DNA of 64,000 nucleotides from a virus (Duplodnaviria; Caudoviricetes). Position numbers and translations under genes: made by a program. This document shows, one piece after another, positions 7,786 to 58,935 of this stretch; the first letter of the stretch is position 1; each line of letters starts with the position of its first letter. Location of the stretch: IMG/VR virus record IMGVR_UViG_3300025000_000055, one strand, 5' to 3'. The notes under the pieces were generated by a model. The model saw nothing but the letters and a program-made list of their open reading frames with translations, did not search any database and was not told where the DNA came from.

Positions 7786-10700
7786 ATGAAAAAACCATAT
7801 ATTTATGATTTGGAAACTAAGAACTTATCTTTCTTACAAACAGCTAAAGATCTACATGTACTTGGTATTAAAAATAATGTATTTTTTTTAAAATTGTATG
7901 ATAAATCTTTAAAGAAAGTTGATCCTCATTCACCATTTTTAACAGATGACCAAATTATAAAAATTATTAATGAATGTATGATTAATCCCTGGTATTTTTT
8001 AAGAGAGGTTGCAAGAATTGCAGATCAAGGCGGGAGGGGTCTTCCATATCAACTTCATAGGGCTAATCTAGCTTCCACATATTGTTATTTAAATGGTATA
8101 GATCATTATGTAGTAATACCAAGACAAAAAGGTAAAACTCAAAGTGAATTAGCTATAATAAATTGGTCATTTCTATTAGGTACAACTAATTCAGAATTTA
8201 TGTTTTTAAGTCTAAGTCAAGCTGGTGCTAATGAAAATCTTGATAGATTGAAAAAACAAAAAGATTTATTACCACATTATTTACAATTTAAAATGATTTT
8301 TTCAGATGATGGTAAAATTATTAAAGAAACTGATAATGTTAAAACTTTAGCTAATGCTATTAATGGTAATAAAATAATAACTAAACCATCTGCTAAATCA
8401 ATAGAAGCCGCCGAGAAGATCGGTAGGGGTTATTTTTAGCTCCCTCATACAGTAATGTATGTTGAATAACTTCTTTAATTGTCGGGGAAGCTCTTAGAGC
8501 CTAAGACTACTAAATTATATTAGTAATAATATAATGGCTTGGACTAATCAACCAAGGTATAGTAATAAGGTTTTAGGATTGAGTAATCCGCAGCTAAGAT
8601 TTTATTAAATGGGTAACAATTTTATAAAAAAATGTATAAAGGTGTTGATAATAAAATGTTTGTCGTAATACCAGTTGAAAGGAAAAAATTTAAACCATTG
8701 ACATTCCCAGAAGTTCAAGAAGGTAGATATATAATCAGTAATTATGGTGATATTATTGATTTAAAAACAGGATTAGAAAAAAAATTAAATATTAATAAGA
8801 AAAAATAATTATATTAGTGCAAAAATTAAAATGGATAATAATAAAACTAAATCAATAGCTGTTCATAGATTAGTAGCTTATGAATTTTGTGATAATTATA
8901 ATGTTAATGATAAAAATAGTCTTAAAAGTTTTAATTATTATGAAAATCTTGAATGGGTTACTTATTCTGAGAATAATAAACATCGTTTTGAGCATGGGAA
9001 TGGAAGTAGTGCTAAACCACCAATACTTAGGGGTGAGAATAATCCTCACAACGTTTACTCTACAGAATTTATAAAGGAAATTTGTTTTTTATTAACTAAA
9101 AGATATACTGTTAAAGAAATACTAGATTATTTTGAATGTATAGAAAATAGGAAAAAAATAATTTCTTTAATTCATGATATACGATGTAGAAGAACATGGG
9201 GACATATTTCTAGAAATTATGATTTTGAAACCCATTTAACAAAATAAAGTTCAACGACTATCCCATTGGTACTGAAATGGTACAATAGGAGTAGGGCTCA
9301 AGTGAGTGGGTGAAATTCCCTTAAATCGAAATAGGAAACTCCATTATACTGATTATATAATGGATGAAGATATAGTCTAGTATCCTAATGAAAGTTAGGG
9401 AAGTTCATAAGAGAACTGCATAGATTAACGACCTATGTGAATATATCGAGTACACAACCTGTGCATTTATACGACGAAGTTGAGTTTACATCCTATATTA
9501 AAACTATCATTGAGGCAGCGGCAATGGCGTTTAAAACAGCTTCTAAAAATGCAAAAAGAAATAATGCCCCTTATTGCCGTTCGTTCCTGAGCACACCTGG
9601 AGATCTCGATACTAAAGCTGGACAAGAATGTATGGATATAATTAGTAAGACATATAGATGGACTGAAAAATTTTATGATATGAATATAGATGATGTTAAA
9701 GAAATTATAATAAATAATTCAGAAAATAGAATAGTTTATATTGAATACGATTATAAACAATTAGGAGAAGGTGAAGAATGGTTTAATGAATCTTGTGCAG
9801 TAATAGGTAATAATCCATTAAAAATTAAGAGAGAATTATTATTACAAAGAATGAGAGGTTCTTCTAATTCTCCATTTGAACCAGAAGATTTAGAACTTAT
9901 TAGAGAAAAACAAGGTAAAATAATTGAAGAAATATTTATTAATAAATTATTTAGATTGGACATATATAAACCTTTAGTAAGAGATAGAATTTATTTTATA
10001 TGTGTTGACGTTTCAAAAGGTTATGGTCAAGATAATTCAGCTGTAGTAATATTAGATCCATATGAACTCAAGCCCGTTGCAGAATTTGAATCACCGTATA
10101 TAGGTGTAACTCAATTAAAGAATTTTTTATATACACTTGTTAAGAAATATTTACCTAGAAGTATTTTATGTATTGAAAGAAATGAGAATGGTGAATCTAT
10201 ATTAGATGGGTTAAGATATACTGATATAATGCATAATTTATATTTTGATAAAGATAAAGACCCTATTGCTTCACAATTAGATGATAGAATGGATAGTCAA
10301 GGATTTTTAAAACAAGAAGCTTTGAAACGTAAATTATATGGTGTATGGACTGGAACTAAATCAAGACAAGTAATGTTTAGTTTATTGGAAACACATATCG
10401 CAGAATATAAAGATAATTTTATTTGTGCAAATATTATTAATGATTTATTTAAATTAGTCATGAAAAAGAATGGTAAGATTGAAGCTGAAAGTGGATTCCA
10501 TGATGATTCTATTATGGCATATTTAATAGGATTATATGTTTATTATCATGGTAATAATCTACATTATTTTGGTTTTGTTAAAGGTGAATTACCTGATGAA
10601 AAAACCCGAAATAAAGGATTATCGACATATGATGAAATAATGGAAGAAATGCCTGATGAAGAAAAACGATTTTTTGATGAGAGTTTTGGTTCTAAGACTA

Positions 10701-10867
10701 TAGATGATTATCAAAATCATGTAATAGAAGAACTAAAAAGAGTTCAAAGAGAACAAACTAATATGACTAATGCAAGTGGGATGTTTAAACCAACAACCTA
10801 TGCTGAACAATATGAAGATAATGAAATTGAAATACCATTAGACTTCTTTGATGAATTAAATAGTTAG
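7786..10867 (+). CDS. terL: Terminase large subunit, spliced join(7786..8430,9449..10867), about 687 aa
   Basis: Walker A PRQKGKT. Splicing restores GRG|STQPVHLYDE (Walker B). Nuclease motifs VDVSKG..D and HDD. Confidence 0.9.
8431..9448 (+). mobile_element. Group I intron (IA-like) in terL
   Basis: Core elements AATTGTCGGG, AATCCGCAGC, GTTCAACGACTA, AAGATATAGTCT. P1: exon GGGGU pairs with GCUCC. Ends ...GTGAATATATCG. Confidence 0.93.
8632..9247 (+). pseudogene. Degenerate NUMOD4/HNH homing endonuclease in the terL intron
   Basis: YIISNYG..KTG, then a stop at 8806-8808 after an A6 run. The shifted frame has VHRLVA and NLEWVT, but the usual NHKD core is missing. Confidence 0.8.
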
Positions 10868-10957
10868 TTATAAAATAATATAATGTATATTAATATACAT
10901 TATATTATTTTTTTACTATTATACTAACAATGTTTTAATTATGAATAAAAAAGGAGA

Positions 10958-11740
10958 GTGAAAAAGTTGCTATTTGATGATGAAGAATATATGAGAACTA
11001 GTGATTTAGATATAGAATTACTATTAGCAGAATTACCGTTTAATTTAACAAGAGAAAATATAATTGAACAAATAAATGACCCAATTTCAATTCAAGTTAA
11101 TTATATAACTACGTTATTGGATAAATGTGATATTGTTAAAAATCAATTTGTTGATAACTCTGAAGTTATTAAAGAAATTGATACAAATTTGCGTTCAATA
11201 TTCGAACTTATTTTAAGAGAAATGAATGAAAAATTTAGATTGGGTGTAAGTGTAAATGAAAGTGATGATGATATTATTAAATTGGGTGAAGCCTTATACA
11301 CATATTTAATTTTAAGATATAAAAAAAATGTTAGTCGATTTATATATAGATACATTTTAAAAAATAAAAAAGAGTTTATTGAAAAATTTGATACAACTAA
11401 GAAAAAAGATATTACATCATTGGCATTAAAGAAACAATTTAAAAATAAAGATGATATAATTCTAATCACATCATTACCTAAAATTATAAAACATATTATG
11501 GGTCTTGATATAGAACCAATAGATTTTTTAGATATTATTTCAAAAGGTGAACACTATGAGGCTTCTATTATTAAGGAAGCTATTTTATCAGGACAGATTA
11601 TAGGTAATTTTATACCAAGATATTTTTATTTAATGATTGACGAATATGAACATGTTATGGATGAGATTCAAACAGATATAAAATTAAAGTTAATAAATAA
11701 AATAAAAAGTAATGAAGGGAAGAGGATGAAAAATGAATAA
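10958..11740 (+). CDS. Hypothetical protein (structural block)
   Basis: 260 aa ORF, AGGAG RBS, AACA-N6-TA at 10926-10937. Confidence 0.75.
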   Translation: MKKLLFDDEEYMRTSDLDIELLLAELPFNLTRENIIEQINDPISIQVNYITTLLDKCDIVKNQFVDNSEVIKEIDTNLRSIFELILREMNEKFRLGVSVNESDDDIIKLGEALYTYLILRYKKNVSRFIYRYILKNKKEFIEKFDTTKKKDITSLALKKQFKNKDDIILITSLPKIIKHIMGLDIEPIDFLDIISKGEHYEASIIKEAILSGQIIGNFIPRYFYLMIDEYEHVMDEIQTDIKLKLINKIKSNEGKRMKNE

Positions 11741-12704: not shown

Positions 12705-12782
12705 AAACATTAGGATAAGGTTGTGAATTTTAAATTCACTTCCTTATCCTAATTTTATTTTTTAAAGGTAGGTGTAAATAAA

Positions 12783-13517: not shown

Positions 13518-13558
13518 TAATCAATGAGAACAATTAAATAAAAAAATTCACAAGGAGG

Positions 13559-16309: not shown

Positions 16310-18936
16310 TTATTGTTCAGTTGAACTATCATCAGGATTTTCTGTTAAAATTTTCTGATATTCTAATTTAGCATCTTCTACAGCTGTATCAAACATCCTC
16401 CAAGGTAACATTGGTAAAATTTCTCTAGTTGCCTTATTCATAATTAAATCTTTAATTTTATTATCCTTATCTGTTGGAGAAGCATTTTCTCCCGATACTA
16501 TTTTAAGCATAAATGCTAGCAATTGATCTGCATTTGAAATTAAATCACTCATATTCATAGTATTTAGTGCTTTAGGTAAATTTAAACTATATACAAATGT
16601 TTCAATTATTTCTTTAGGTATTTCTGTACCAGAAAATTTCATTATTTTTTTATAGAATTCAGTTATATTAGGGTTAAAATCAAGTTGATCACTTACAACT
16701 CTCCCTGTAAATTTGGCATTAGCCATGACAAGAGTCTTTGCATACGGTATATTCACATAGGTCGTTAATCTATGCAGTTCTCTTATGAACTTCCCTAACT
16801 TTCATTAGGATACTAGACTATATCTTCATCTTTTATTAAGTTAATTAATCCTAATAAAAGAGCTCTCCATTTCGATTTAAGGGATTTTCACCCACCTACT
16901 TAGGCCCTACTCCTATTGATCATTTCAGATCCAAAGGGATAGTCGTTGAACTTTATTCCTTATTATATAAGGAATCTTAGCTGCGGATCACCTAATCTTA
17001 AACATTATTACCTTACTCAGGTTAATTACTCCTGACCACTATATCATTGCTAATATAGTTTGGTAGTTTAAGATTTAAAGACTTCCCCGACAATTAAAAG
17101 AGAATTGGTATTATAGATCACTCTATAACCTGACTAATAATTATCAGCTTCATTGATATAATTCATTATTACAGATGGGACACCAGTACCATTAATGTAA
17201 GATGTTTTTAACATCTCCATTAAATCAGTATTTAATTGTATATCCTGACCTGCCAATATATCAAACTCTATTCCTTTTTCACCAGTTCTACCTACAGGTA
17301 CAAAAACACCTTTAGCATGACCAATTTTAGATACCATTGTATTATAATTTAATAAATCCATAAAATTTATATCTCTTTCTTTAAGAGTTCTAGCTACATC
17401 TTGTAATTTATTAATAATATTTGTATCTATACCAGAATTTTTAATATAATTAATTCTAGTATCGTTAGATTTACTAATAATAGAAACCATCTTAAATATT
17501 AAAAGAGCTAAATATAATTTAGCATAAAATAATGACTTCATTAGTATACTAGTTCCTTCACCATCTTCATTTTCATTAACAGTGAATTCAGTTATATAAT
17601 CAACTGGTATAAATTGAAATTTTATTTTCTTTTTATATAGTTCATTATAAGATAAGCAATTGAATATTAATTCTTTAAATTTAATATTTTCTTCTAAGTA
17701 TTTTTTATTAAATGATTTAACGATTTTTTCAGTTAGTTTAGTTAAAAACATATTTTCAAGTTCGGGTGTATTAAGATTAACAGTATTAATTCGTATTGTA
17801 TTAATAAATGGGGATTTACTAATAGGTGAAGCTTCATGTATATAATAGTATCCTATAACATGATCCATTATTTTAACAGGTATGATCTTTTTAGGACTAA
17901 TTAATTTAATAAAACAATCCGTTATATTATCAAAATTATTAGTCTTATCTTTTTCTGTAGATATAGTTGCATCATTAAAAAATGTTGAAAATGAATTAGT
18001 TTTATTTTTAGATTTATTACTATTTTTAATAGCATCTTCAACATCTTTTTTAAATTTTTCATCAGTAATAAGTTCCGATACATCAACACCTTCTAGTATA
18101 GGTATATGTACAATATCATTTTCGACTTCAATATCTTTAACTAAATCTTTTATTTCTTTTTTTAATATTGAGGAAACCGATTTAATTTGCCCGTCATCTT
18201 TTAATTCTCTTATAAAATTATCATCAATATTTTCAGTTATAGAAATTGTTTTTAATTCTCTTACCTTTTTATCATAGAAATTTTCAAATAATTTTGAATA
18301 AGGTACAGTGTAAACATAATATTTACCGTATTGAAGAGTTTTCGGTATAATATGATTTTTCAATTTACTTGATAATTTAAATTTAGTCTCTAAATTTTCT
18401 ATTAATGATATATAACTCTGTTTATCTTCTTCACTACAATTAGAACTTTTAAATTGTAAATTTCTTGATATAGATTGAGTAACATCATCAGCTGTTACTA
18501 TCGCATCTCTAGTTGCATTAACAGCTTCTTCTAGCTCAAATAGATGACTACAAATTAAATCAAGGTCTTCATACAAAAGATTTTGATTTCTATATCTTTC
18601 ATTAAAAAATTGAAATACAGCATTGTCTTCTGATGAAAATATATCTTCAATTTTTTTTATATTTGAAAATTGTTGACTCTCATAATCATTAAATAGTTTT
18701 ACTAGAAAAGTTGATATGTCATCTCCACCAAAATCAGTTAATTTTTTTATCTCCTGAAAAATAACATCATCAACCTGATCTGATAATTTTTTAATTTCTT
18801 TCTCTCTTTTAGTATCACTTGCATTAGTATTAAAAGAAATTTTATCCAATACATCATTAAATAAAGCATTTAATTTTATCAACGGTCTTTCTATTTTTTT
18901 AACAATTACTCTTTTAGTTTGTTTCTCAGCACTCAT
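16310..18936 (-). CDS. Putative portal protein, spliced join(18936..17143,16744..16310), about 742 aa
   Basis: Splicing restores NYINEAD|YAKTL. The portal identity comes from recalled similarity to phiKZ-like portals (RDAIVTAD, IIPKTLQYG) and is not verified. Confidence 0.65.
16745..17142 (-). mobile_element. ORF-less group I intron in the portal gene
   Basis: Same core as the terL intron. P1: exon CUGAU pairs with GUCAG. Ends ...GTGAATATACCG. Confidence 0.93.
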
Positions 18937-18994: not shown

Positions 18995-19642
18995 CTAGTA
19001 TTTAATACACATGTATCTGTGAAATAAATTAAAGTATTCGGTTTCAAAAATTATTAAACTTTCAAATAAATTACTATTATTTATATCTTTAAAACTAATA
19101 CTGATATTATTACTTTTTTTCAATAACGGTATTAGTTTATTTGCTAATCTTACTTTATAATCATTCATTGAAAAAGTAACAATATTTTTAGCATTTAGCT
19201 TTTCTATTATATCATATGATATTATCTTTTTATCAATATTATCAAAATCATTTATTTTATTTATAGCTAATTTATACAGATCATATAATTCTTTTGTTAT
19301 AGACTTAATATTAATTATTCTACCTATTTGAAAGCTATTTTCATCTTTATCATCTGTTAAAAATAAAGTATTATTTAAATAATTTATATGTTTTATACTC
19401 TTTTTATTCTTACTAATAACTTTAAATACATCATTGGAACTTATACAAAATATTTGATCATTTTCAATATTAAATATAGGTGTAAATACTTTACCAAAAT
19501 GTTCTCCATAACTCAAATGTTTGTTATCGATAGTGAATATTATAGTACCATCAGAAAATAAAAGATATTCTGTAGATAATTTTTTAGCCAATTGATTAAA
19601 ATCATTTAATTTTTTTACTTCAAATTTATACATATATTTCAT
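18995..19642 (-). CDS. Hypothetical protein downstream of DNA polymerase
   Basis: 215 aa ORF starting 3 nt after the polymerase stop. Confidence 0.75.
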   Translation of the reverse strand: MKYMYKFEVKKLNDFNQLAKKLSTEYLLFSDGTIIFTIDNKHLSYGEHFGKVFTPIFNIENDQIFCISSNDVFKVISKNKKSIKHINYLNNTLFLTDDKDENSFQIGRIINIKSITKELYDLYKLAINKINDFDNIDKKIISYDIIEKLNAKNIVTFSMNDYKVRLANKLIPLLKKSNNISISFKDINNSNLFESLIIFETEYFNLFHRYMCIKY

Positions 19643-19645: not shown

Positions 19646-22117
19646 TTACACTATAATTTTATTAACATAATAATTATTAACATCATTAATATCAATAATT
19701 AGTTTCTTGTTCTTTTTAATATTTAACTTTTCTTTTATAACAGAATCTATTTCTTCTAATTTGGGAAGATTAAAAAAATCATGACCTAAACTATTTAAAT
19801 CACCTATTAACATATTATCTATAAAGATTTTACCTATATCTTCTTTTTTATCTTTATCATCAATATCTTCAATATAATTTGGCAATTCCTTATTATTTTC
19901 TATAATTAATTTACCGATCATGGAATTAGGTTCAATATTAAAACAAATAATAATACTTGGATACATACTGGAAAACGTAATATTCACATAGATCGTTATT
20001 CTATGCAGTTCTCTTATGAACTTCCTTAGCTTTCACTAAGATACTAGACTATATCTTCATCCATTATATAATCGGTATAATGGAGCCTCCTATTTCGATT
20101 TAAGGGATTTTCACCCACCTACTTAGGCCCTACTCCTAATGACCATTTCAGATCCAAAGGGATAGTCGTTGAACTTTATTCCTATAACTAGGAATCTTAG
20201 CTGCGGATTACTCAATCTTTTTATTATAAATAAAAAGCTCTAAGAGCTTCCCCGACAATTAAAGAAGTTATTCAACATACATTACTATATGAGGGAACAA
20301 ATTCATCCATATCAATAACATTGTCAAATATAAATTGACTTTTTTTACCTAAAATTTCAATACCAACATGAGAATTTAATAATGGGTTGGCAACTAAAGC
20401 TCCTGCAAATTTTTCATCTTCATCATCTTCGTTATTCTTGATTGTTTCTACACCATACTGAATATTAATGTTATTAGCTATTATTAACCCTTGCTTATAA
20501 AATTCTATATATGCACGATTTTTTAAAAACGTTAAGTTCACATAGATCATTAGTCTATGCAGTTCTCTTATGAACTTCCCTAAGCTTTCCTTAGGATACC
20601 AGACTATATCATCATCTCATAGAGATGCTTCCTATTTCGATTTAAGGGATTCTCACCCACCTACTTAGGCCCTACTCCTAATGACCATTTCAGATCCAAA
20701 GGGATAGTCGTTGAACTTTATTCCTATAACTAGGAATCTTAGCTGCGGATTACTCAATCTTTTTATTATAAATAAAAAGCTCTAAGAGCTTCCCCGACAA
20801 TTAAAGAAGTTTACAATACATATTACTATGTAAAGGGTCTAATTATTAAACCGTTTGTCTAAATACTTTTTTATAAGTTGTAGCATTAGTATATGAACGT
20901 TGATATACATTATCAATATCATTAACTTTTCTTTCAATACCTAATTGAAGTAAGACGTCTTTAATATTATACATAACAAATTTTTTATAATTTCTATATG
21001 GTAAAGTTTTAATATTACCATCTTCACTATAATCTAATTTAGTATCACTAATTTCTTTTTCTGCAACATAAGTAAGAGCATTAGAACGTAATTCCGAAGC
21101 TCCTTTTCTTAAAGCACTGTATACTATCATTTGATCTAAAAAAACTGTATAAGATGATATTTTAAAATAATCACCTTTATTTGCTACTTTAAAATTTCTC
21201 ATATCTTTTACAAACATTAATTCTTTTATATTAAAATCAGGATGACACATTATTTCTTTTGGATCTAAATTTAACTCTTTCATACGAGCTATTAAATATG
21301 GGACATCAAATCCGATATTCCAAATCATTAAGAAATCACGTTTAAGAGTATTTATTAATTTAAATGTATCTATCAACATTTCACTTTCATCTTCATACAT
21401 ATAAATATTATATTTTAATACCCCATATGATTCATCAAATACTTTATGAAGCTCTTCTACAAAATTATCTATATCTTTTTTAAACTTTTCTATTTGAGGA
21501 TTATTTTCATTTTCTAAAAGAAAAGTAAAACATGTGTTACTAGTTTCATCAATTAAAGTAATTGCATTAACTGGACATTCACCATCTTTAGGAAATCCAA
21601 TTACTTCTATTGAATCAACTTCAATATCAAGATATGTCTTAGTTATAGGTTTAGGTTTATCATTATGATAATTTAATAACCATTGTATTCTATACCAATT
21701 TTCAATATTATAATCTGAACCAAATACATATCTATATTTATGCAAATTATTAATAGCATACCTATTTCTAGTTTCCAACTTTTGTTTAATATAAGTTAAA
21801 TATTCTTCACCTGCTTGTTTAGCTATATAAAAAGGTAAATCTTTATATTTAGTTCGGTGACACTCAGTTTCACTTAAAGGACTAAATGATTTATTATGTT
21901 GAAAATTTCTAAATTCTTCTTTTGTAAAATAAATATCCATCTCAGGTTCATCTATAGTTAATATGTGTTTTTCACCAGTATTTAAATCTTTATAAATAAT
22001 ATCGAGACTATCTTTATACTTTCTTTCTTTATTAGGAAAATGGTAAATTGTTTCTAAAAACATTATGTTATCACTTTTCATCTTTCCAAGAAACTTCATT
22101 CTATAAATCACCACCAA
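19646..22117 (-). CDS. polB: Family-B DNA polymerase N-terminal subunit (exonuclease + motif A), join(22117..20849,20529..20305,19975..19646)
   Basis: ExoI LDIEV, ExoII WNIGFDVPY, ExoIII YNIKDV. Splicing restores RQTV|FLKNRAY and DMD|FSSMYPS. No motifs B or C. Confidence 0.88.
19976..20304 (-). mobile_element. ORF-less group I intron 2 in polB (inside motif A)
   Basis: Family core; ends ...GTGAATATTACG. P1: exon GGAU pairs with GUUC. Confidence 0.93.
20530..20848 (-). mobile_element. ORF-less group I intron 1 in polB
   Basis: Family core; ends ...GTGAACTTAACG. P1: exon GGUU pairs with GACC. Confidence 0.93.
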
Positions 22118-38902: not shown

Positions 38903-41900
38903 TTAAATATCTTCTTCTATACCATTCATTTTAATTTTAATATAAAAAAGATTTGTATTTTCATTCTCTTTCCTTTTAACTTGGAATTTATTATTAATTT
39001 CTCTTATAGTATTAATTCTATCTAAATATTCTTCTTCATTATCATAGTCAATTGAAACAAAACAACTATTAGGTTCATCTTCCTTACAATATTTAAATAA
39101 ATCTTTCTCAAATAAACATTTAAAACTTTCTGGTTCTCTTGAATCATCAAAGAATAAACCATGAGTTTTACAAAAAGGAGTTATAATACCACTAGTGCCT
39201 GGATCTGTTATGTTCACATAGGTCGTTAATCTATGCAGTTCTCTTAAGAACTTCCCTAAGATTTCCCTAGGATACCAGACTATATCATTAACCTAAATTT
39301 ATTAGGTTACTTCCCACTTCGATTTAAGGGATTCTCACCCACCTACTTAGGCCCTACTCCTATTGCTTATTTCAAAGCCAAAAGGGATAGTCGTTGAACT
39401 TTATTGTTATAATTAATAAGTGTAATCTTTTGATATGTGTACCCATGAAGTTCTTTTTCTTAAATGTTTAACCAAACCCCTATAAGATTCATTTTGTTTT
39501 TTGTCTTTAACTATCATATTCATCTCCTTTCTTATCTCATATTCAGAATAACCTTTTTCTAATAAAATACATATCCCACGAATTAATGTTTCTGAATATT
39601 TATTACATCCATGTCTTTCACCTTTAACTGGTTTTTGTAACCCTTCTCTCCATGAATGATCAATATTTTCTTTAGGAGTACTCCATTCTAAATTTTTATA
39701 AAAATTATTAGTTTTATTAGTATCTTTATGATTTATATGAATATATTTTTCATTAAAAAACACTTTTAATGGTAGAAAATAATATCCGACTAATCTATGT
39801 ATATAAAATTTTCTTTGTTTTTTGTATCCTTTTAGCGTACATCTTAAATAACCATCCTTATCAGTAAAAGGACTTAAAAATCTACCAGTTAATTTATTTC
39901 TAACCTTACCATAATTACTAATTTCGTATATATTTTTAACATTATATTCTATAATATCTTTCCATTCTTCTTCATGGGGTTTAATAAATATTATCATTTA
40001 ATACACACCTCTTAACATATAACAATCTTAGCTGCGGATTACTCAATCCTAAAACCTTGTTACCATACCTTAGTTGATTAGACTAAGCCACTATATTGTT
40101 TCCGATATAGTTTGGTAGTTTTAGGCTATAAGAGATTTCCCGACAATTAAAGAAGTTTTCATCATAAGTTACCCTATAATGCTCCAATCCAGTAGAGTTA
40201 CCGCATACGTTAATATCGAGCTTCCCAATGTAAGATGGATGAATATCACGATATTTTTTTGATATCCTATTGTCATTCTTACCACCCAAACTATTCGGAC
40301 CTTTAATAGTATATCTTAGTTTACTAAAAAAATCCATATCATTTATTTTATCCGTTGTGTTCACATTACTCGTCAAATAATGCAGTTCTCTTATGAACTT
40401 CCCTAAGTTTCCCTAGGATACCAGACTATATCTTCATCCTTAATTAAGTTAATTACTCTCATTTAAGGAGCTCCCCGTTTTAACTCACCATTATAGACTT
40501 GTGAGATTACTCTACTTCATATGTTAATTTCTATAACATATTTTTCGATAGTCTTTGAACTTTCACCTTTATATAATTTTTTCCAAGATCTCCCTGATTT
40601 GATATTACTCATTAAAGTATAAAGATTTCTAATTTCCCTTTTTGATAAATTATTTAAACCTAGTTTATCAATTATCTTTTTATGTTTTAATCCTTGTTTC
40701 ATAAACTTAATTATATTTCTTATTAATTCTTCATCATATCTTTTTTGTTTACATTTATTCAAATCAATATTTTCGGTTAAATAAATTCGTGTTCTTTTAG
40801 CTCTTAAATCATTTATAAATGTACGTATATTTTTTTTATTTTCTAAATTTAATTCATAAATTATAATATCAGTACTTTTATTTTCTTGTAATAAAGATAC
40901 TATTTGTTTAGATAATTTATCCGAGAATTTACTTAAAGGATGTTTTTCTCCAATAGGTTTATTTCCTTCCTTATATGAATACGCAATATTTTCTTTCTGA
41001 GTACATTTTTCTAAAAGATCTAATTTATTAAATTTATTTATACTATCTTTATGATGAATTATCATTGATTTATCAGATATATTAAAATCTGACATAAAAT
41101 AATAAGCTAATAATCTATGAATTAAAAAATTTCTAAATTTACCATCTATACATGATAATTGAATATATTCGTATTCTTTAGTATTTTTAGAATTTTTTAA
41201 AATCCTATTAAATTTATCATTTCTAATAAATCCATCAGAATTTATAGAATAATTCTTTTTAACTTGGGGCAAATCTATTTTTACCCAATCTTCTTTTTTC
41301 ATATCTTTCTCTTTTCTTTATATAATTTTTATTTTTCTTGGAAAATATATCTTTATAAAGGTTATTAGCTGCGGATTGTCCAATCCTTACTGTTATTACT
41401 ATACCAGGTTAATTACTCCTGCCACTATAATATCACTATTATAGATTAGTAAGTAAGGCCCTAAGGAGTTCCCCGACAATTAAAGAAGATTCTTTACAAT
41501 ATTACTACTGTAAAGGACAGTATCTATCAAATCTTAATAATCCTGAATCATGTAAATTCTGAATTAGCATATCTCCAGGAAATTTAAATATTTCTTCAAT
41601 ATTTTCTAAAGTCATTTTTTTACCTAAACTAATAACTCTATTCATTCTTTTACTAAATGCTTTAGTTAATAAAGAAGCAATATATTCATTACATCTTAAT
41701 CTTTTATTATCTATAGACATATTATCTTTCTTTCTTAATTCATCAAAATTTTGAATCATCCATCTGATAACAGAATAAACATTCTTTCGATGTTCATAAT
41801 CTATCTTTAATATATTCTTAGTTGTTTCATCTATTAATCTATCAAAGAAGATTAAAGTATTTAATCCTTTCTCATAGTAGTTATAAGCCATAGTAGCACT

Positions 41901-48035: not shown

Positions 48036-50922
48036 TCATACTTTAATATCAATAACGAACATTTCTTCTTTAATTCTTCGTCTCTCAACTTCTTCATCTA
48101 AAAGTTTTTCGAAATCTTTTGTAGTACCAACAAATACTTTATTTTCCTTATATTCATTAATAATGTCTATTCGTCTTTTAATATCTTTAAATTCTTCATT
48201 ATTACTTATAAAGAATTTTCCATCATAAAATTTACCTTCAAGAAACCCAGTATTAATATCTATATCAAATAATTCATTATTAAATTCAATTTTTAAACCC
48301 ATAGATTTCAAAAAGGCTCCTAATATTTCAATATTTCTATTTTTAAAATTTGGTTTATATTTAAAATCTTTTATAGGGTTTAATCTTGTCATTAAATTTT
48401 CACCTAAATTACGTCTACCTATAACAGATGACCTATAAAATAAATGTAGTTGAGCTATTAGTTCAGTTGGAACACCTATATTAGTATTAAGATTTTCATC
48501 AATACCAATTCTTATAGGAGTCTTAGAATATAATTCCTGATGAGTTTTAGCCTTATTAGATTTTTCAGGTAAACCTTTTCTAGATAAAGTTCCAGTTGAT
48601 CTAGCTGAAAAACCTTTCTTAGCTGTTTGCATTAATTTCATTACATACATATCACCAACTACTAACTTTTTCATCATTTTAATTTTCCTACCAAATCTAT
48701 TTGTATAAACATCATATTGTTCAATCCAATCATGTTCTTCATATAATTGAATAAGTTTATCAAATAAAAATTCTTCTTCCCATAAAGGAGGTATATGAAT
48801 AAATACACCTTCTTCAACTAAATTATTAAAAAATTCTTCTTTACTAATAACACTTAATCTCTTTAAATATTGTCTTAATTTTTCTTCTTGGTCTTTATTA
48901 AAATAACTTATTATATTAAGAAATAAATCTTCCTTTTCTTTTATGTCAGTCATTGTTTGAATACGTTCTACAGTTCTATTACAAATAAAAGTAATTGATT
49001 GTTCAAAAAGCTGGTATGAGTTTACAATTGTTTTAGACCATATCTTCATCTCAAATGAGATGCCTCCCGTTTCGGGTTTCCCCTACTCTACTTACTTCTT
49101 CAGTTATAAGTAAATTATAACCTATGCTTTCGATGGTCGTTGAGCATATTTCAAATATTAATATTTGAAACTTCGCTGCGGATTATTCAATCTTAAACCT
49201 TTTTACCATACCTGAGTAATTACTTCAGCCCTTATCTATATGTCACCATGATAAGTTGGTAGATTAAGATTAGCGAACTTTCCCGCAATTAGAGAGGTTT
49301 TAAATCGCCTAAACCTTACCAGTCCAGCGATTGATCACAGATAAACTGTTAAACAGAAGGTCTACACGTTCTCCAGTTTCTAAAAATGGCATCTCATCAT
49401 CAGGTAATATCTTTGATATAACACCTTTGTTACCATATCTCGTTGTATTCACATAGAACGTTAATCTATGCAGTTCTCTCATGAACTTCCCTAGTTTTCA
49501 CTAAGATACTAGACTATATCATTAACCTAAATAAATTAGGTTACTTCCTATTTCGATTTAAGGGATTCTCACCCACCTACTTAGGCCCTACTCCTATTGT
49601 ACATTGCAGTACCTAAGGGATAGTCGTTGAACTTTATTCCTTATATAAGGAATCTTAGCTGCGGATTACTCAATCTTTTAATAATATAAATATTATTAAA
49701 AGCTCTAAGAGCCTCCCCGACAATTAAAGAAGTTTTCTATATATGTCACCACATATAGGGGCTAAGCTATGTAACCCGTTACTTTCTGACCCACTTCTAA
49801 ATAGGCATCTTTTTCAACTAAAAATTCTATTACTATATTGGAAAATACTGAGTTATTTTCTTCTCTCCATTTATATTTTTCGTCTAATATATTTTTTGCT
49901 TTTCTCATATAAAAACTTATTTCTCTAGAATATTTAGAACCAGAATCAATTATCTGTTTACATCTTTTAAATATTCTTTCATAATAAACTAATTGCATTT
50001 TATAATATTTCATTATCTGTCTATTAAAATCATTCTCTTCCAATTCATCTAAAGTTTTATTACAATATATATCTATATCAATAATTTTACCTTTACCTTC
50101 AATAAAGAATAATACATCAGAAGTAAAATCAATCTTTCTAAGATTAGATTTCTTTAAATCATATAATAATTGATTATTATGAATTCTCCTCTTAGCACAA
50201 ATTATTTTATCCTTAACATATTCGTTTATATCAGGAAATGTCTTATAATTATTACCATTCCCATATATATTACAAAAGATATCATTATCATTTAATGAAA
50301 CTTTAACTCTCTCAACTTCTGTTGAAACCATTCTTCTTGATAATGATTCTGAACATACAATAGCATCTTCAATAGTATTATTCTCTAAAAGATACATAAA
50401 CTTAACATTAGCACCATAACAATAATTCATATCTTCATCATAAGAAGAACTCTTATAAAGAACTTCTCCTTTATATATTGAAGTCCCAACTTCTTTATTA
50501 TCAATATTATCAGTATTATATTTGAAACCATATCTTTCTGTTAAATCTTCAACGTTTTTCTTTTCTATAATATCATATTGGTCATTTTCTTTATCATATA
50601 TGAATAATAAATATATTTGTTCTTCATTTTCACCATCTGTAAACTTACTAATTTTATCAATAATAACACAATCATTTTTAACTTTTTTATAACCAGTTGA
50701 ATTCTTACCAACTATATTTTCATAATTAGTAAAAATTCTTGGAAATTCGGGATTATTTAGAGTAACACATTGCTTCAAGTGAGCTGTAAACATAATATTT
50801 CTTGATGAACTAATATAACCTGGATTTGTTAAAAGAGTCATCCCAAATATATCATCTTTACCTTTAAACTCCTTTTCTTTTTCTTGTAATATTTCTTTCA
50901 ATGACATTGTAGTTTTATACAA
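48036..50922 (-). CDS. rpoB: Phage RNA polymerase beta-like C-terminal subunit (probably non-virion), join(50922..49774,49440..49326,49024..48036), about 750 aa
   Basis: Splicing restores KVTG|RYGNKGV (GRHGNKG motif) and INRL|NSYQLFE (SRMN.GQ..E motif; phase-1 junction T|TA). VGDMYVMKL...ARSTG follows. Confidence 0.9.
49025..49325 (-). mobile_element. Divergent ORF-less group I intron, apparently lacking P9
   Basis: AATTGCGGG, AATCCGCAGC, CTCAACGACCA, AAGATATGGTCT. P1: exon AAUCGCU pairs with GGCGAUU. Only 10 nt separate P7 from the terminal G. Confidence 0.85.
49441..49773 (-). mobile_element. ORF-less family group I intron in the beta-C gene
   Basis: P1: exon GGGU pairs with GCCC; ends GTGAATACAACG. 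Confidence 0.93.
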
Positions 50923-51013: not shown

Positions 51014-52970
51014 TTATATAGCTTTTTGAAATTGTTTTTCTTGTGATTTTTCTAACCTATCACATAATTCAAAAATATTTAATAATTGACCATTTTCTTC
51101 TGGTTCAACATGCGATAGTTGTTTTTCTAATATAGGTAATGACCTATTAAATAATTCGTATCTTAATTTTTCATTAGTAAGAAATTCTTTTCTAAATTTT
51201 CTACTATCAAATTTAATATCTTTTACACCTTCAATATATTTATAAGGATTACGACCAGCAATTAATTCATTATCTTCAGCAAATCTTAGTTGAGTTAAAA
51301 TAGGGTCAAAACCAGTGGATTGGTCATAAATAAGATTTACAAATTGACCAGCTTTATTTGTTCTAGATTTTAGAAACTCAGCTCTTACACCAAATCCATC
51401 AAAACCATTTTCTTCTTTCTTAAATTTTTCTGAACCTAAAGCTATAAAATTAACTAATAAATTAGCATAATAGATCGATTTATTCACATTGGTTGTCAGT
51501 CAATGCAGTTCTCTTATGAACTTCCCTAATTTTCATTAGGATACTAGACTATATCTTCATCCTTAATAAATTTTATTAAGGAGTTACCCATTTCGTAAAG
51601 AACTCTGAAAAGTTCACCTCACCATTATTGACTTGTGAGTCTACTCCTACTTTACTTTTATTAAAAGTAACGTCATCAGATAGTCGTTGAACTTTATTCC
51701 TTATTAATTAATTAAGGAATCTTAGCTGCGGATTACTCAATCTTTTTATTATATAATAAAAAGCTCTAAGAGCTTCCCCGACAATTAAAGTAATGCTAAC
51801 ATAATATTACTATTATGCCACCCTAAATTTAGGTGCATTCCCACCCGTTAAGTTCACATAGTTCGTCAAACTATGCAGTTCTCTTATGAACTTCCCTAAG
51901 CTTTCCTTAGGATACCAGACTATATCATTAACCTAATAAGAATTATTAGGTTACTTCCTATTTCGATTTAAGGGAATTTCACCCACCTACTTAGGCCCTA
52001 CTCCTATTGATCATTTCAGATCCAATGGGATAGTCGTTGAACTTTATTCCTTATTAATTAATAATAAGGAATCTTAGCTGCGGATTACTCAATCTCTTAA
52101 TAATATTAATGTATTAAAAGCTCTAAGAGCTTCCCCGACAATTAAAGAAGTTATTCAACATACATTACTGTATGAGGCCCCACAAATCTCGAGTTTAGGG
52201 ATACTCTGATCCATCTTCATATATAATAATTGTGGTTGCGTTTTATGCATAGGGTTAATTTCAATTTTTTGATTAATATGATTTATAGCAATAACATTTA
52301 TGTTATAGGCTTTTATAATTGGCATTAGTCTCTTATAAAATTGGGCCAAAGCTTTAGCAACTCTGTTAGCATAAGTCCCACCTTCCATTTCATTAGAAGC
52401 ATCTTTTGAAGCAACAGTTGGAATTGAATCTATAATCATAACTGTTGGAACAAAGGTTTTAATGGGTCTATTAAATTCATCAACTAATCCTGTATCATAA
52501 GTATAATCTTTTCTATTAACTTCTTTCTCTTGAGCTATTTCAACTATACTATTAAATATATCTTCAATATAATTTTTTTCTTGTTTCAATAAATATTTAT
52601 CATCAAGTTCTTGCTGAGTCATAGATGTTACATTTTTTATTCTGGTATAAGATAATACTTGTTCTAAGTCGTAATGTTGAACAAATGCATTATCAACAAA
52701 TTTTCTAACAATATTGGCTGCAATTTGAATAGCAAAAGTAGTTTTAGCAGTACCAGCCTTACCTATAATTGTCATAAACGTACCACCAACTATACCAATA
52801 GAAGAATAAGTAGTTATAAGTTTCTCATCTAAATCTCTAACTTCCACCATATACCCATTTCTATAATCAAATGGTACAAAACCTGTTGGATAACAAATGG
52901 ATGTTTGTGTTGGACTAAATAAACCCTTTTTATCTTTTTCTCTTAATCTTGAGAGCATTTTATTAGCCAT
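51014..52970 (-). CDS. recA: RecA/UvsX-like recombinase, join(52970..52197,51845..51831,51475..51014), about 416 aa
   Basis: Walker A GKAGTAKT, Walker B IIDS, INHI. Splicing restores QSIP|GGNAP|IYYA (RecA TPGG.ALKFYA). Confidence 0.88.
51476..51830 (-). mobile_element. ORF-less group I intron 2 in recA
   Basis: P1: exon CACCU pairs with GGGUG; ends GTGAATAAATCG. Confidence 0.92.
51846..52196 (-). mobile_element. ORF-less group I intron 1 in recA
   Basis: P1: exon CCCU pairs with GGGG; ends GTGAACTTAACG. Confidence 0.92.
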
Positions 52971-53103
52971 TTTTATTTTTCATCTCCTTATAAAATTTTA
53001 TTGACTTTCTTTATATGATAGTTGTTCTAAAGATAGAATTCTAAAAAATATAAAAAAAATAAAGAATGGAATTAACCATTCTTTATTTTATTAAAAGTAT
53101 ATT

Positions 53104-54039: not shown

Positions 54040-54087
54040 AATAAATCTCCCCCTATTTTATTATTTTTATTTTATAAATACAATTTT

Positions 54088-54996
54088 TTAATACTTATAT
54101 TGTATTATAGAACCATTGTTCAATAAAATAAACACCGCTTTAAATTTTGATGTAAGTTCTTGTAATATTACTTTATATTTATCTTCTAATCGTTCAATTG
54201 ATTCATTAGAATCAACAAATAGAGTTATAACACTGTATCTATTACTCTTTAATTCCCCAATAAGGTCTTTAAGATTTTCCTCACTAAAATAAGTAAACAA
54301 ATTATGGTATTGTAAGTTATTCTTAACAACCTTTTCCATAGTCCGTTCCATTTTTGAATACACATCATTGGAACATATAACTATTTGTGTAGGTCTTTTC
54401 GGCCTGTTATTCTTTATTTTTATAACAACAGGTTCAAATAGTTTATTTAATTTCTGTATAGATTTTTTACATCTTAAATTAAAATTTTGATTATACATAA
54501 TTTTATATTGAGTTATCTCTTTGTCTTTTTCATTATAAAGAGAGATATAACAATAAGAATCTGTATTTGCTTCCATCGAGATTACTATATTTAACTCATT
54601 TTTATTAAGACTATTGTCAATAATAAAATTTCTATCCATCTGAATATCAAATAAGATTTTATCTCTAACATCCAAACTTAATAGTATAACGTTTCTGTTA
54701 TTTCCACTTCTTGATTGTACAATAAATGGATTCAAATCTTTATATCCAAATAAAACATTTGTATCAACATCACATATCTTAACAACATCTATGGTTTTAC
54801 CAATGTTATTAACAGTTGTTTTAATTTTATTTATAAAATCTTCTTCCGGGGATGTTAAATAAATCCCACAATTATAAGTACGAATTTTCTCTTCATCTTC
54901 TTTGAAAAAATCATACTTTTTAGAAATCTGTAAATATTTACTACCCTCCCTTGATATTTCCCAAGGCTTTTCTGTTTCATTAAATAAATAAATCAT
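54088..54996 (-). CDS. Hypothetical protein (paralog of the previous gene)
   Basis: 302 aa; same motifs as 53104..54039. Confidence 0.75.
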   Translation of the reverse strand: MIYLFNETEKPWEISREGSKYLQISKKYDFFKEDEEKIRTYNCGIYLTSPEEDFINKIKTTVNNIGKTIDVVKICDVDTNVLFGYKDLNPFIVQSRSGNNRNVILLSLDVRDKILFDIQMDRNFIIDNSLNKNELNIVISMEANTDSYCYISLYNEKDKEITQYKIMYNQNFNLRCKKSIQKLNKLFEPVVIKIKNNRPKRPTQIVICSNDVYSKMERTMEKVVKNNLQYHNLFTYFSEENLKDLIGELKSNRYSVITLFVDSNESIERLEDKYKVILQELTSKFKAVFILLNNGSIIQYKY

Positions 54997-55158
54997 AACC
55001 CGACCTCCTATCTCTATATCTCATCTTTTCTATTTAATATTTCTGTTTATTTCCAAATTATTTTTAATTAATCATAATTTTCCATTTCCTATCATTCCTT
55101 TAAATAAATTAATATAAAGTTGATTTAATAAATCAACTTTATATTATTTTTATTAATT

Positions 55159-56031
55159 TTATAAAAATTTTTTATTTTTCATATCAGAAATAACATCTGA
55201 TACTTTAGGATATGTTTCAGCACTTACCTGTGTAAATTGAATCCGACGAGCACTATCTTTACCTCGTTTATCATCTCTTTCACGACGGTCAATAAAATAG
55301 GCTAGTCTTTCTTTAATTTCTTTCTTCTTACCTTCTTCAAGATAAGATAAAACAAAGTTAGTTAAAATATTCCAGATTATCATCTGTTTGTCATCTAAAT
55401 GACGGATGATATCTTTTCTTTCAAGGGCGATTTCCATAATAACTGCATTCAAAAAATCTTCATTAAATAAAGACATAAAAAGTTTCTTTAAAATTTTATT
55501 GTCTAGTTTTAATTCAGATTCTTTACTCAAAGCATAAAGTTTACGAATAAGTCTCTGCACATAAATTCCAATTATCCTCTCATTTTCAATCATAGATTTA
55601 TCAGGTATAATAGCTAGTAATTCCTTAATTGTACTTTCATCTAAATCAACTTTTTTCTTAATTTTCTTGACTTTCTTTTTAAGCAATTCATCAATAATAC
55701 CACAGTATATATCATTAACATCAGTTTCAATCTTATCATGATTTCTTTCTAAAAAGTTATAAAGTAAAACAACCAATGCGGGGTCGTTGTTTTCTTTATT
55801 TTCTTTAACAACCTTCTTCAGAGTTTTAGCAAATTTTAAATCCATCATTTTTTCAAATATAACAGTTACAATGTCCTGCTCCTTAAAACCTCTGCGAATA
55901 TAAAAGGTTGTAAGGTCTGAAAGGTTATCTGAAATCACACGAAGCCTTTCATCTTTATTCATTTTCTTAGGTTTCCATTCTTTTAATAATTCTTTTACTG
56001 ACATTAAAAATTCCTCCTTTAAAATATACAA
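55159..56031 (-). CDS. Hypothetical protein
   Basis: 290 aa ORF; AACA-N6-TA at 56054-56043. Confidence 0.75.
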   Translation of the reverse strand: MYILKEEFLMSVKELLKEWKPKKMNKDERLRVISDNLSDLTTFYIRRGFKEQDIVTVIFEKMMDLKFAKTLKKVVKENKENNDPALVVLLYNFLERNHDKIETDVNDIYCGIIDELLKKKVKKIKKKVDLDESTIKELLAIIPDKSMIENERIIGIYVQRLIRKLYALSKESELKLDNKILKKLFMSLFNEDFLNAVIMEIALERKDIIRHLDDKQMIIWNILTNFVLSYLEEGKKKEIKERLAYFIDRRERDDKRGKDSARRIQFTQVSAETYPKVSDVISDMKNKKFL

Positions 56032-56208
56032 TAAGTTTCTAATATTAATTTGTTGTTTATTTACAAATTAATTTTTATAATTCTCAACTCCTTAAAATTT
56101 AATCTTTATACTTTAAAAATAATATATATTTATAAAGTAAATATAATTTTTTATATAATAATAAAAAATAAACATAGATAATACACTATCTATGTTTATT
56201 TGCCATCA

Positions 56209-57036
56209 CTAATTAAAACAATCTAAAGTATAAATTCCATCTTTATCTGGACTATTAAATATTATTGATGTTTCATCAGATATATTTAGAGCTGGACGAA
56301 CACCAAATATCATATTAATAAAACATGATCTATACGTCACCCCTAAATAATTAACATAGGTGGGTGATGGTATAAGAAATGATCTACTTCGTAACCACCA
56401 CATCCACCCATGATTTCTTTCTCTTTTTTTCTTATTAATTTTAATATTATCATTATAACATTCTTTTGATAAAGTTGTTATACGTTTTTCAATATTCCCA
56501 ACAAAAATAGGCAAAATATCAGAACCTTCAATATTATTAACTTCTGCTCCAACTTCCACTAATGATAAAAGAAACACTTTATCTATTAAGTCATCAGTTA
56601 ATTTGGTGTCATGTTCATTTTTTATAACCTTAATATTAGTATCTAAAATCTTAGAAAATTCATTAGTAGTAAAGTGACTTAAAAATCCTGAAACTGTATT
56701 TAACCAGTAACGTATATCGGAAGTACCATATGATTTTATTTTATCTTTTGAAAAAGGGTGTAAATCAATAATTTCATCTGTCAATAAAGTAACAGAATTC
56801 TCAGGATAACCCGGATGGTTCTTAGCAACTATTCTCCAAATAACAGGTGTTATTTCATTGTCACCAACTTTATAACTACCAAATCTAACTTTGTCACTAA
56901 TATTTAATTCTTTAATTAATTTAGACATATCACCACTCCTTTTATATTTTTTATTTAAATATAATATATAAATATAATCTTTTATATTTGTTTCTAGATA
57001 TATAAATATATAATAAGATGTGTTTATTAAACACAT
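56209..57036 (-). CDS. DUF6273-like protein
   Basis: SDIRYWLN..FL..F, DKVFLLS..E, WWLRS, GVRPAL; the true start is probably MSKLIK. Confidence 0.65.
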   Translation of the reverse strand: MCLINTSYYIFIYLETNIKDYIYILYLNKKYKRSGDMSKLIKELNISDKVRFGSYKVGDNEITPVIWRIVAKNHPGYPENSVTLLTDEIIDLHPFSKDKIKSYGTSDIRYWLNTVSGFLSHFTTNEFSKILDTNIKVIKNEHDTKLTDDLIDKVFLLSLVEVGAEVNNIEGSDILPIFVGNIEKRITTLSKECYNDNIKINKKKRERNHGWMWWLRSRSFLIPSPTYVNYLGVTYRSCFINMIFGVRPALNISDETSIIFNSPDKDGIYTLDCFN

Positions 57037-57225
57037 CTTATTATATATTATTTACTTAAATTATCTAAATTAGTTTTTACAGATGACTCAATTAATGTCT
57101 CTAAATCATCCTTTTTTTTAATCTTTTTCTTTGTTGGGTCCTCAATATCTAATTCCCCAAATACACCAACTTCAGTTAGTAAACATAGTTCTTCATTATT
57201 TTCTAACATATTTTTCAACCTCCTA

Positions 57226-58935
57226 TTATTTTAAAGATTTTTTAACTAGTAAACCCTTTGTAACTAAGTCACTATTTATACCCATACTCGTCAAATGCAC
57301 ATCAATTAAATTTAATGTTACTTTATTTTCAACATTATTAGTCAAACTATTTAGAGAAACAAATCCTTTTTGTGCTATAGATGCATACATTTCATTCTTC
57401 ATAACCATATCATCGGCTCTCGGCGATAAGTTCATATTGTTCGTTAGACAATACAGTTCTCTTATGAACTTCCCTAGGGTTTCCCTAGGATACCAGACTA
57501 TATCACTAACCTAAAAATATTAGGTTACTTCCTATTTCGATTTAAGGGATTCTCACCCACTCACTTGAGCCCTACTCCTATTGCTTATTTCAAAGCCTAA
57601 AGGGATAGTCGTTGAACTTTATTCTTATTTTTTAATCATAATTTTATATTTTTTCGAAATATGACCCCATTTACCATATTTTATACCATCTATTAAACTA
57701 TAAAAACTATTATTGTTCTTTCTTTTTTTATAACCATATATATGCATTATTTGCATTTGAGTAAGCCCCTTCTCAAGATATTCGCATATTTCAGTAACTA
57801 ACGCTTCTGAATATTTAGCATAATAATTTAAACTACCATTACAACCAAATCTACTTTTACCATGAATTAAACTAAAGTCATTATTTTCTTTAGTTGTAAC
57901 CCATTCAAGATTTTCGTAATAATTATTAAATGAACATGTATCTTTATGATTCACATTGATTATACATTGTTCTTTATTATAACCATTAATAAATTCCCAA
58001 GCAACAAGTCTATGTATTGCAACATTTTTAATTTCTTTATTTTCACCCATTAATCTTAAATGTAAATATCCTTTTTTATCATGAAAACATTTTAAAAATC
58101 TATCAGTTTTTATATTTTTTATTTTACCATAGTTACTTATTAAATAAGTATTCTTTTTAATAGATGGATATGTAATATTTCGAAAAATTTCTTTATCTTT
58201 TTTAATAACTATATACATTTTTTATCATCCTTTTAAAATAAATTAAAAAAATGTATAATAAGATATTAAAAAATAATATAACTTATAAATAAGAATCTTA
58301 GCTGCGGATTACTCAATCTTTTTATTTATATAAATAAAAAGCTCTAAGAGCTTCCCCGACAATTAAAGAAGTTTTCTATATATGTTACCAATATATAGGG
58401 GCTAAGCTATGTAACCCATTAGCTCTCTTAGTGCATCATTGGCTCCAACAGATAATAATGAAAAGTTTTCTTGATCTGATTCTCTAGCGTTTTTATCTTC
58501 ACCAACGACCTGACCAGTCATTGCAGAACGACTTGAACTTTTTGTTGATAAAGTATTTTTTTTACTCAATAATTGTTGCATTCTTTTAATATGAACATAA
58601 CCAACAGGTACTTCGTATTTAGTAACAACGGGATTATCAATATTATTATTAACAAAAGGTACTACTATTTTTTCGAATAAAGGTATATCTAATACTTTAG
58701 CCGCTTTTTCTATATTGTCAATATTTAAATCTCTCTCATAATCAACCATATCTAAAATAAGATATTGGTCATCATCTTTAAAAAATTCTTTAAAAAAAAT
58801 ATCGAATTGTTTATCACTCATTGGTTGAAATAGTTCTTTATATTTTTTAGTGTTTATACTTGTTGGGTCTAAAGCATCAAACGTATCATAAATTAGTTTT
58901 TCCATCTTTTTTCTTTTATTTTTAATAAGATTCAT
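57226..58935 (-). CDS. rpoB: Second RNA polymerase beta C-terminal fragment (probably virion RNAP), join(58935..58414,57423..57226), about 239 aa
   Basis: VGYVHIKRMQQ...RESDQENFSL...ALRELMG|PRADD aligns by eye with the bacterial beta C-terminus GEME..AL...TVKSDD. Confidence 0.8.
57424..58413 (-). mobile_element. Family group I intron with HNH ORF
   Basis: 5' end TACATAGCTTAGCCCC is identical to that of the 49441-49773 intron; ends ATGAACTTATCG. Confidence 0.92.
57625..58218 (-). CDS. Intron-encoded NUMOD4/HNH homing endonuclease
   Basis: YLISNYG, IHRLVAWEF, VNHKD..NN..ENLEW. Confidence 0.9.
   Translation of the reverse strand: MYIVIKKDKEIFRNITYPSIKKNTYLISNYGKIKNIKTDRFLKCFHDKKGYLHLRLMGENKEIKNVAIHRLVAWEFINGYNKEQCIINVNHKDTCSFNNYYENLEWVTTKENNDFSLIHGKSRFGCNGSLNYYAKYSEALVTEICEYLEKGLTQMQIMHIYGYKKRKNNNSFYSLIDGIKYGKWGHISKKYKIMIKK

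Follow-up and report, generated by a model that had tools for sequence, protein, structure and literature searches.

The 64,000-nucleotide stretch of the viral record IMGVR_UViG_3300025000_000055 (Duplodnaviria; Caudoviricetes), referred to in its entirety as the window in the following, harbors eleven related group I introns distributed over seven essential host genes: terL, a portal-like gene, polB, the RNA polymerase (RNAP) beta N and beta C genes, uvsX/recA, and a second RNAP beta gene. Comparison with sister phages revealed that two parts of these introns behave differently: the short guide module at the 5′ end follows the insertion site, while the ribozyme core follows the genome in which the intron resides. 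This pattern is probably the product of an old family of IA-type introns in a phage clade, in which homing, conversion between copies, and turnover of sites act jointly. The element type as such is not new; the window constitutes a large and well-resolved case of a pattern already visible in the phages AR9 and Twort.

Self-BLAST, a family profile hidden Markov model (HMM), and counts of the P3/P4 and P7 core motifs each returned exactly 11 introns, numbered I1 to I11 along the window. The family profile (nhmmer) was derived from an alignment of 379 columns, A2, built on five copies devoid of an open reading frame (ORF); host genes were identified via PHROGs and Pfam. Scores in bits given below refer to the Rfam group I covariance model RF00028, whose gathering score is 50 bits.

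I1, 8431-9448, plus strand: 1018 nucleotides (nt), in terL; the exons match terminase PHROGs.
I2, 16745-17142, minus strand: 398 nt, ORF-less, with a long P5 extension, in the portal-like structural gene (exon matching phrog_3004); 67.3 bits.
I3, 19976-20304, minus strand: 329 nt, ORF-less, in polB at motif A; 67.9 bits.
I4, 20530-20848, minus strand: 319 nt, ORF-less, in polB; 81.1 bits.
I5, 39205-40193, minus strand: 989 nt, in the RNAP beta N part.
I6, 40353-41525, minus strand: 1173 nt, in the same RNAP beta N gene as I5; the most divergent core of the main family.
I7, 49025-49325, minus strand: 301 nt, ORF-less, in the non-virion RNAP beta C part; a divergent lineage with a short 3′ end that lacks the long 3′ extension; 72.9 bits.
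I8, 49441-49773, minus strand: 333 nt, ORF-less, in the non-virion RNAP beta C part, directly before RYGNKG; 76.4 bits.
I9, 51476-51830, minus strand: 355 nt, ORF-less, in uvsX/recA, with a distinct P7.1/P7.2; 62.0 bits.
Micro-exon, 51831-51845, minus strand: 15 nt, GGTGGGAATGCACCT, encoding GGNAP, between I10 and I9.
I10, 51846-52196, minus strand: 351 nt, ORF-less, in uvsX/recA; 73.4 bits.
I11, 57424-58413, minus strand: 990 nt, in the second RNAP beta gene (exon matching phrog_3233).

All seven ORF-less introns exceed the RF00028 gathering score, and in the four introns that carry an ORF in the P6 loop (I1, I5, I6, and I11) both halves match the family HMM. Rfam alignment of I4 revealed P1 through P9 in the expected order, and approximately 70 nt between P7 and P3′ fold as hairpins in the consensus, the model being a generic one that is not specific for a subgroup. 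Scans with RF00028 are insensitive on long stretches: the whole window yielded three introns each time and a 4.4 kb stretch none; scans of at most 1 kb recovered I3, I4, and I7. An earlier, sequence-only reading of the window had described ten introns of one family, six of them ORF-less. The shared family was borne out, and the outermost limits given there, 8431 and 58413, are exact intron ends; the count, however, rises to 11 with the divergent short I7, which had been overlooked, and seven of the 11 are ORF-less. Two near-identical motifs quoted as shared between copies do recur in the window, the first eight times at up to three mismatches (five exact) and the second in six exact matches, compared with none of either in shuffled sequences. 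The flanking exons, said to be unrelated, do belong to host genes that are unrelated, except that I8 and I11 reside at roughly homologous positions of paralogous beta genes; the 5′ module of I11 is nearly identical to that of I8.

The window has a G+C content of about 25%, and its RNAP beta is 36–38% identical to those of AR9/PBS1, MarsHill-like, and Listeria LPJP1 jumbo phages; as part of the overall explanation preferred here, its source is probably an uncultured AR9/PBS1-like groundwater jumbo phage. In IMG/VR, 92 stretches matched a conserved intron motif. Three sister genomes, G001, G003, and G004, are syntenic with the window at 84–90% DNA identity, G001 (249,853 bp) being rated complete and G003 and G004 being fragments, and a more distant relative, G005, is about 70% identical. 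The closest DNA matches of the window introns are introns of Twort/K-like phages and of AR9, and no intron match closer than 70–77% identity was found in cultured phages. By the family HMM, G001 contains about 20 introns, and the 100 kb of G005 contain about 23. Pairing of introns in the same gene is significant in G001 (P ~0.012) and not significant in the window alone (P 0.15). The intron density of G005 is extreme for a phage: six family introns lie within 2.4 kb of its RNAP beta C gene (L113, 5405-7753), another gene has five in 2.1 kb (L114, 38067-40167), and exons in these dense regions can be as short as about 30 nt.

The sequence-only reading had set the affinity of each intron for same-site introns of other phages against its affinity for siblings in the same genome. 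At full length the outcome is split: for five of ten window introns the nearest intron occupies the same site in a sister, and for the other five it occupies a different site. In the first five, full-length identities to the same-site intron amount to 93% for terL, 94% for portal, 92% for polB-a, 89% for recA-b, and 92% for I11. A comparison by segment, carried out on 24 introns having a same-site counterpart, separates the two affinities. For the P1-P2 segment, the nearest intron is the same-site one in 15–19 of the 24. For the P7-P7.2 segment, an intron at another site of the same genome is nearest in 13 of the 24 and the same-site intron in only two to three; in 19 of the 24, the best paralog from the same genome is closer than any same-site intron. 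The mixed full-length affinities thus arise because P1-P2 tracks the site while core segments track the genome.

A single structural variant makes this exchange most apparent. The P7.2 hairpin occurs as GCUC-AAGU-GAGU or as GCCU-AAGU-AGGU, two forms that differ by four changes in two swapped pairs and are fully compensatory. Six window introns, those in portal, both polB introns, I5, I8, and I10, carry the GCCU-AAGU-AGGU form, whereas the corresponding sites in G001, G003, and G004 carry GCUC-AAGU-GAGU. Counts of the P7.2 sequences GCCUAAGUAGG and GCUCAAGUGAG are 6:2 in the window, 1:13 in G001, 0:4 in G003, and 0:6 in G004. Six independent occurrences of the same double compensation are not credible, and the P7.2 variant must therefore have spread between sites within a genome. 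The types of P2, P5 (a short hairpin or an extension of about 60 nt), and P8 are likewise reshuffled among the copies. At the polB-b site, what the introns of the window and of G003 have in common is limited to the first dozen bases, which comprise the P1 loop and the guide. In a tree of the introns, the G001 polB intron pairs with the G001 recA intron (support 100/95), and the portal introns form a clade (100/100).

The module that follows the site consists of the P1 loop, a conserved G, and two to six (usually three to four) variable guide bases. In all 11 introns, U is the last base of the upstream exon and lies opposite a guide G, and between three and seven contiguous P1 pairs are formed (5, 5, 4, 4, 4, 3, 7, 4, 5, 4, and 4 for I1 to I11). 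Written as exon/guide, the pairings are GGGGU/GCUCC for I1, CUGAU/GUCAG for I2, GGAU/GUUC for I3, GGUU/GACC for I4, CUCU/GGAG for I5, GAU/GUC plus two intron-side pairs for I6, AAUCGCU/GGCGAUU (7 bp) for I7, GGGU/GCCC for I8, CACCU/GGGUG for I9, CCCU/GGGG for I10, and GGGU/GCCC for I11. The four site-matched guides quoted in the sequence-only reading (I1, I2, I9, and I5) are all among them. When guides were reassigned at random among the exons, none of 20,000 shuffles reached the observed pairing sum, the choice of splice sites having drawn partly on P1 pairing. Guide and exon covary directly at the I10 site: exon AUCCCU faces guide GGGG in the window and in G001, and exon AUACCU faces GGGU in G004, the exon change being synonymous. 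Five junctions are confirmed exactly by intron-less alleles, those of I3 and I6 by G001, of I8 by G004, and of I9 and I10 by G005, in which an intron-less recA aligns collinearly with the spliced sequence and in which CGHAA aligns to the micro-exon product GGNAP. The ligated exons are predicted to read ...EKIGRG|STQPVH... across I1 and VIDMD|FSSMYPS across I3. Ten of the 11 introns end in G with the reading frame kept; the exception is I5. The micro-exon of uvsX/recA corresponds to the RecA L2 region, and the layout with two introns is also found in G001 and G004.

For ten of the 11 window sites, at least one sister has an intron at the same position; the I8 and I11 sites are occupied in G005 too, and only the I5 site is occupied in the window alone. 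I7 has same-site counterparts in G001 and G004, and I11 in G001, G004, and G005. Clean intron-less junctions were found for I3 in G001, for I5 in G001 and G003, for I6 in G001, and for I8 in G004. Two other positions of the beta N gene are occupied in G001, one lying 54 nt downstream of the I6 site and the other 6 nt downstream of that of I5, which results in four alternative intron sites spanning 165 nt across the window and G001. The window I5 is most similar to the G001 intron at the neighboring site, with 88% identity in the core, 98% in P3-P6, and 69% in the endonuclease. Logan contigs from the source runs, which are unphased contigs only, include an allele that skips exactly 40353-41525, the extent of I6; forms with and without this intron therefore coexist in the source samples.

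The ORFs located in P6 loops are related to HNH endonuclease genes to varying degrees.

8656-9247, plus strand: broken HNH gene in the I1 P6 loop, recognized by sequence reading and from the ORF list.
39413-39997, minus strand: predicted HNH endonuclease of 194 amino acids in the I5 P6 loop (NUMOD4, 4e-12; HNH_3).
40517-41302, minus strand: ORF of 261 amino acids in the I6 P6 loop, a putative HNH-family relative (phrog_59, 1.5e-17).
57625-58218, minus strand: predicted HNH endonuclease of 197 amino acids in the I11 P6 loop (NUMOD4 and HNH_3).

The ORFs of I5 and I11 are predicted to encode I-HmuI-like HNH homing endonucleases: in both, NUMOD4 lies over the Pfam cut-off, HNH_3 (E 3.5e-5 and 2.1e-5, respectively) has a score just under it, and the I5 product matches the I-HmuI structure 1U3E (E 3.8e-14). 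In the I6 ORF, the NUMOD4 match (8e-4) is under the Pfam cut-off and HNH support comes from PHROG families only. The gene in I1 is split into a NUMOD4-like piece of 63 codons (8656-8847), terminated by a stop within an A-run, and a piece of 138 amino acids in another frame (8831-9247); HNH matches to phrog_59/959 are confined to the C-terminal part. Endonuclease proteins encoded at different sites share 27–41% identity, while the I11 protein matches its same-site counterparts at 78% (G004) and 56% (G005) identity. In portal, polB, and I11, some sisters carry an endonuclease gene at a site where others have none; for instance, the I2 site of G003 is occupied by the same intron carrying an HNH gene. 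The sister phages carry the I1 intron without an ORF. Presence and absence at the same site, together with the broken I1 ORF, are consistent with a cycle of gain, decay, and loss. The I7-site intron of G004 contains an ORF of 341 amino acids (L109, 8216-9241), in which no HNH signature and only a weak Pfam match to DUF5889 were detected; the I7 of the window is ORF-less.

The explanation that probably accounts best for these observations assumes a family of self-splicing introns long resident at many sites in the phage clade. Each member would consist of a conserved ribozyme body of about 300–400 nt, a tiny 5′ module conferring specificity, and, in some copies, an I-HmuI-like HNH gene in the P6 loop; guide and exon would co-evolve. 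Three processes would act on this family. Endonuclease-driven homing would move introns between cognate sites of co-infecting sister phages. Copies at different sites within a genome would often recombine non-reciprocally (gene conversion), for which identical core stretches of 30–130 nt may serve as homology; this would homogenize the core and leave the guide module untouched. Finally, introns would occasionally be gained or lost at nearby sites and would survive only where the guide fits the exon. The pattern that gene conversion leaves is plainly seen in the copies, and conversion itself is the mechanism that we infer from it. I-HmuI is an enzyme known to nick near occupied sites, and nicking of this kind by the HNH enzymes may, speculatively, start conversions. 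A further proposal, which must be regarded as tentative and as rather unlikely at present, is that introns reach new sites at the DNA level, with neither a reverse transcriptase nor retargeting of an endonuclease, by joining a resident body to a new guide module, and that this is ongoing. It would be considered ongoing because the four beta sites within 165 nt differ among phages that are 84–90% identical and because alleles with and without an intron coexist. Were it true, ectopic colonization by group I introns would become directly testable in nature and in cultured AR9.

Several points weigh against this explanation. In approximately unbiased (AU) tests on full-length introns, same-site clades were not rejected (p 0.15–0.47), a result that is expected for mosaic introns; the case for exchange therefore rests on the segment comparisons and on one diagnostic variant. 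The sequences compared are short and under ribozyme selection, by which similarity is inflated, and every genome in the comparison is a metagenome assembly. The differences in site occupancy establish polymorphism and may reflect either gains or losses; an ancestrally denser intron state followed by differential loss is possible, since G005 packs six introns into about 2.4 kb. Furthermore, we infer splicing at the predicted junctions from genomic sequence, as the sequencing runs containing the window sequence are groundwater metagenomes and none is an RNA data set. For I5, even the predicted junction is unusual, with an A in place of the terminal G: its 3′ end reads ...AACA followed by an exon G, compared with ...AACG in sibling introns, and alignment with the intron-less G003 allele gives a precise insertion only if the intron ends in A, at 39206. 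If I5 instead ended at the next G, the canonical product would be out of frame by −1, frameshifting the RNAP beta N gene. No other copies of this odd 3′ junction were found in IMG/VR or the JGI metagenomes. A GTG at 39217 lies in frame with the exon downstream of I5, and the beta N gene might be read as two pieces from this codon.

The sequence-only reading had proposed a recent burst of intragenomic transposition in the window phage, through reverse splicing or recombination between cores, by which ten new sites would have been colonized and the guide re-matched afterwards. One part of this proposal stands, namely that core sequence has been exchanged between copies with the 5′ end of each kept. 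The long identical stretches shared by the window copies, the distance (70–77%) to any intron of cultured phages, and the I5 site unique to the window would fit a burst as well, as would the use of one guide and a 4-nt target by unrelated genes of G001, where three loci combine CCCU with GGGG. The pairing of AUGGU and GCC likewise recurs at three G001 loci, two of them in paralogous beta-prime genes. The sharing of guide and four-base target fits guide-directed insertion and would be no less expected if insertions that cannot be spliced are lost. A burst in this phage is nevertheless not supported and has to be considered improbable, since sisters share ten of the 11 sites and the relative of about 70% identity shares two of them, since the endonuclease genes have diverged to 27–41% identity between sites, and since no reverse transcriptase (RVT_1) match was obtained in the complete sister genome G001, a search that did yield matches in control genomes and that leaves room for a host enzyme. 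The conservation of P1-P2 modules by site across genomes likewise speaks against it. Homing to cognate sites as the only process, with similarity between sites resulting from common ancestry and ribozyme selection in place of exchange, carries a comparably small probability. It would account for the portal, terL, recA-b, and I11 introns, whose nearest relatives are same-site counterparts at 87–94% identity, for the fully supported clade of portal introns, and for the outcome of the AU tests, but it is at odds with a four-base P7.2 variant shared by six window introns and absent from those sites in three sisters, with the predominance of same-genome paralogs in P7-P7.2, and with the reshuffling of P2, P5, and P8 types. 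That homogenized or chimeric cores merely reflect the collapse or mis-threading of repeats during assembly is highly improbable. All genomes are indeed short-read metagenome assemblies, several sister strains coexist in the samples, and contigs built at k=31 are confused by repeats, with many joints between introns that go back. However, copy-specific differences lie 10–40 nt on either side of the P7.2 variant, well inside one read, both P7.2 variants are kept within one assembly, independent Logan contigs are identical to the window across 39352-40046 and 40383-41534, and the site-specific modules are the same in sisters that were assembled separately.

Phages with several introns are familiar. 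A comparable arrangement exists in AR9/PBS1 (Takahashivirus), which belongs to the same phage clade as the window (RNAP beta about 37% identical). As in the window, RNAP beta, DNA polymerase, and other core genes of AR9 are interrupted, one beta gene being annotated as a join of six pieces, and HNH endonuclease genes are present as well. AR9 has 13 RF00028 matches over the cut-off, and its introns at three different loci share exact stretches of 76–79 nt; the pattern of a multi-site family therefore exists in a published cultured relative. The window introns are about 69% identical to those of AR9 across about 60% of their length. What distinguishes the window from AR9 is the availability of sister genomes, by which site-specific and genome-specific parts can be separated. 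AR9 introns are also densely packed: a stretch of 1.4 kb contains four group I introns, and one of 2.9 kb contains at least five (NC_031039; intron regions 95395-96740, 118423-118734, and 150108-153011).

In phage Twort, orf142 contains two highly similar introns, I2 and I3, with an exon of 23 nt between them (PMC10136302). These introns belong to subgroup IA2 and resemble the recA pair of the window, in which 15 nt separate the two introns. Exon skipping has been demonstrated in Twort, whereas the micro-exon layout of the window is known from sequence alone; moreover, the two recA introns differ in P1, P2, and P7.1/P7.2, and Twort has a handful of introns compared with 11 in the window. The DNA polymerase intron of SPO1, which encodes I-HmuI, shares with I5 the NUMOD4 and HNH_3 architecture and the location of the gene in a phage intron loop, but represents one intron at one site rather than a multi-site family. 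Among the MarsHill-like Staphylococcus jumbo phages, intron number and exon boundaries vary between three relatives, and a family-wide comparison of the introns is not part of that study (bioRxiv 10.1101/2020.12.14.422802). The virion RNAP beta intron of a MarsHill-like phage is about 77% identical to I8 and I10, and MarsHill yields only five RF00028 matches, one of them over the cut-off. Outside phages, related group I introns at different sites of eukaryotic ribosomal DNA (rDNA) have been taken as evidence for reverse splicing (PMC1299323; reviewed in PMC3984707). The rDNA introns likewise occupy non-homologous sites that share only a few bases complementary to the guide, while their targets are eukaryotic rRNA genes and those in the window are protein-coding phage genes, with no reverse transcriptase evident. 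Recombination between copies at the DNA level is the better-supported process here than reverse splicing.

Reverse splicing and ectopic spread of group I introns were described in a 2014 review as lacking direct evidence, and ectopic mobility was named as a future goal (PMC3984707). A literature search of incomplete coverage retrieved no account of dispersed phage introns evolving in concert. The clade has about 20 copies in each genome, is represented by several sisters that differ in the sites occupied, and draws a clean line between a tiny, site-specific guide module and a ribozyme body that is exchanged freely; it thus offers a natural data set for conversion between dispersed introns, for the co-evolution of guide and exon, and for site turnover. 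The findings also bear on the idea that the split RNA polymerase genes of jumbo phages arose via intron activity and on that of intron endonucleases as weapons among co-infecting phages.

Two minor observations concern the remainder of the window. A weak match to the family at 60638-60757 was rejected as an intron, since it has no Rfam match and the core motifs are absent. The ORF of the last polB exon (19646-19987) ends four bases from the next ORF (18995-19642; 215 amino acids, no Pfam match), and polB may be split or may continue into the latter.

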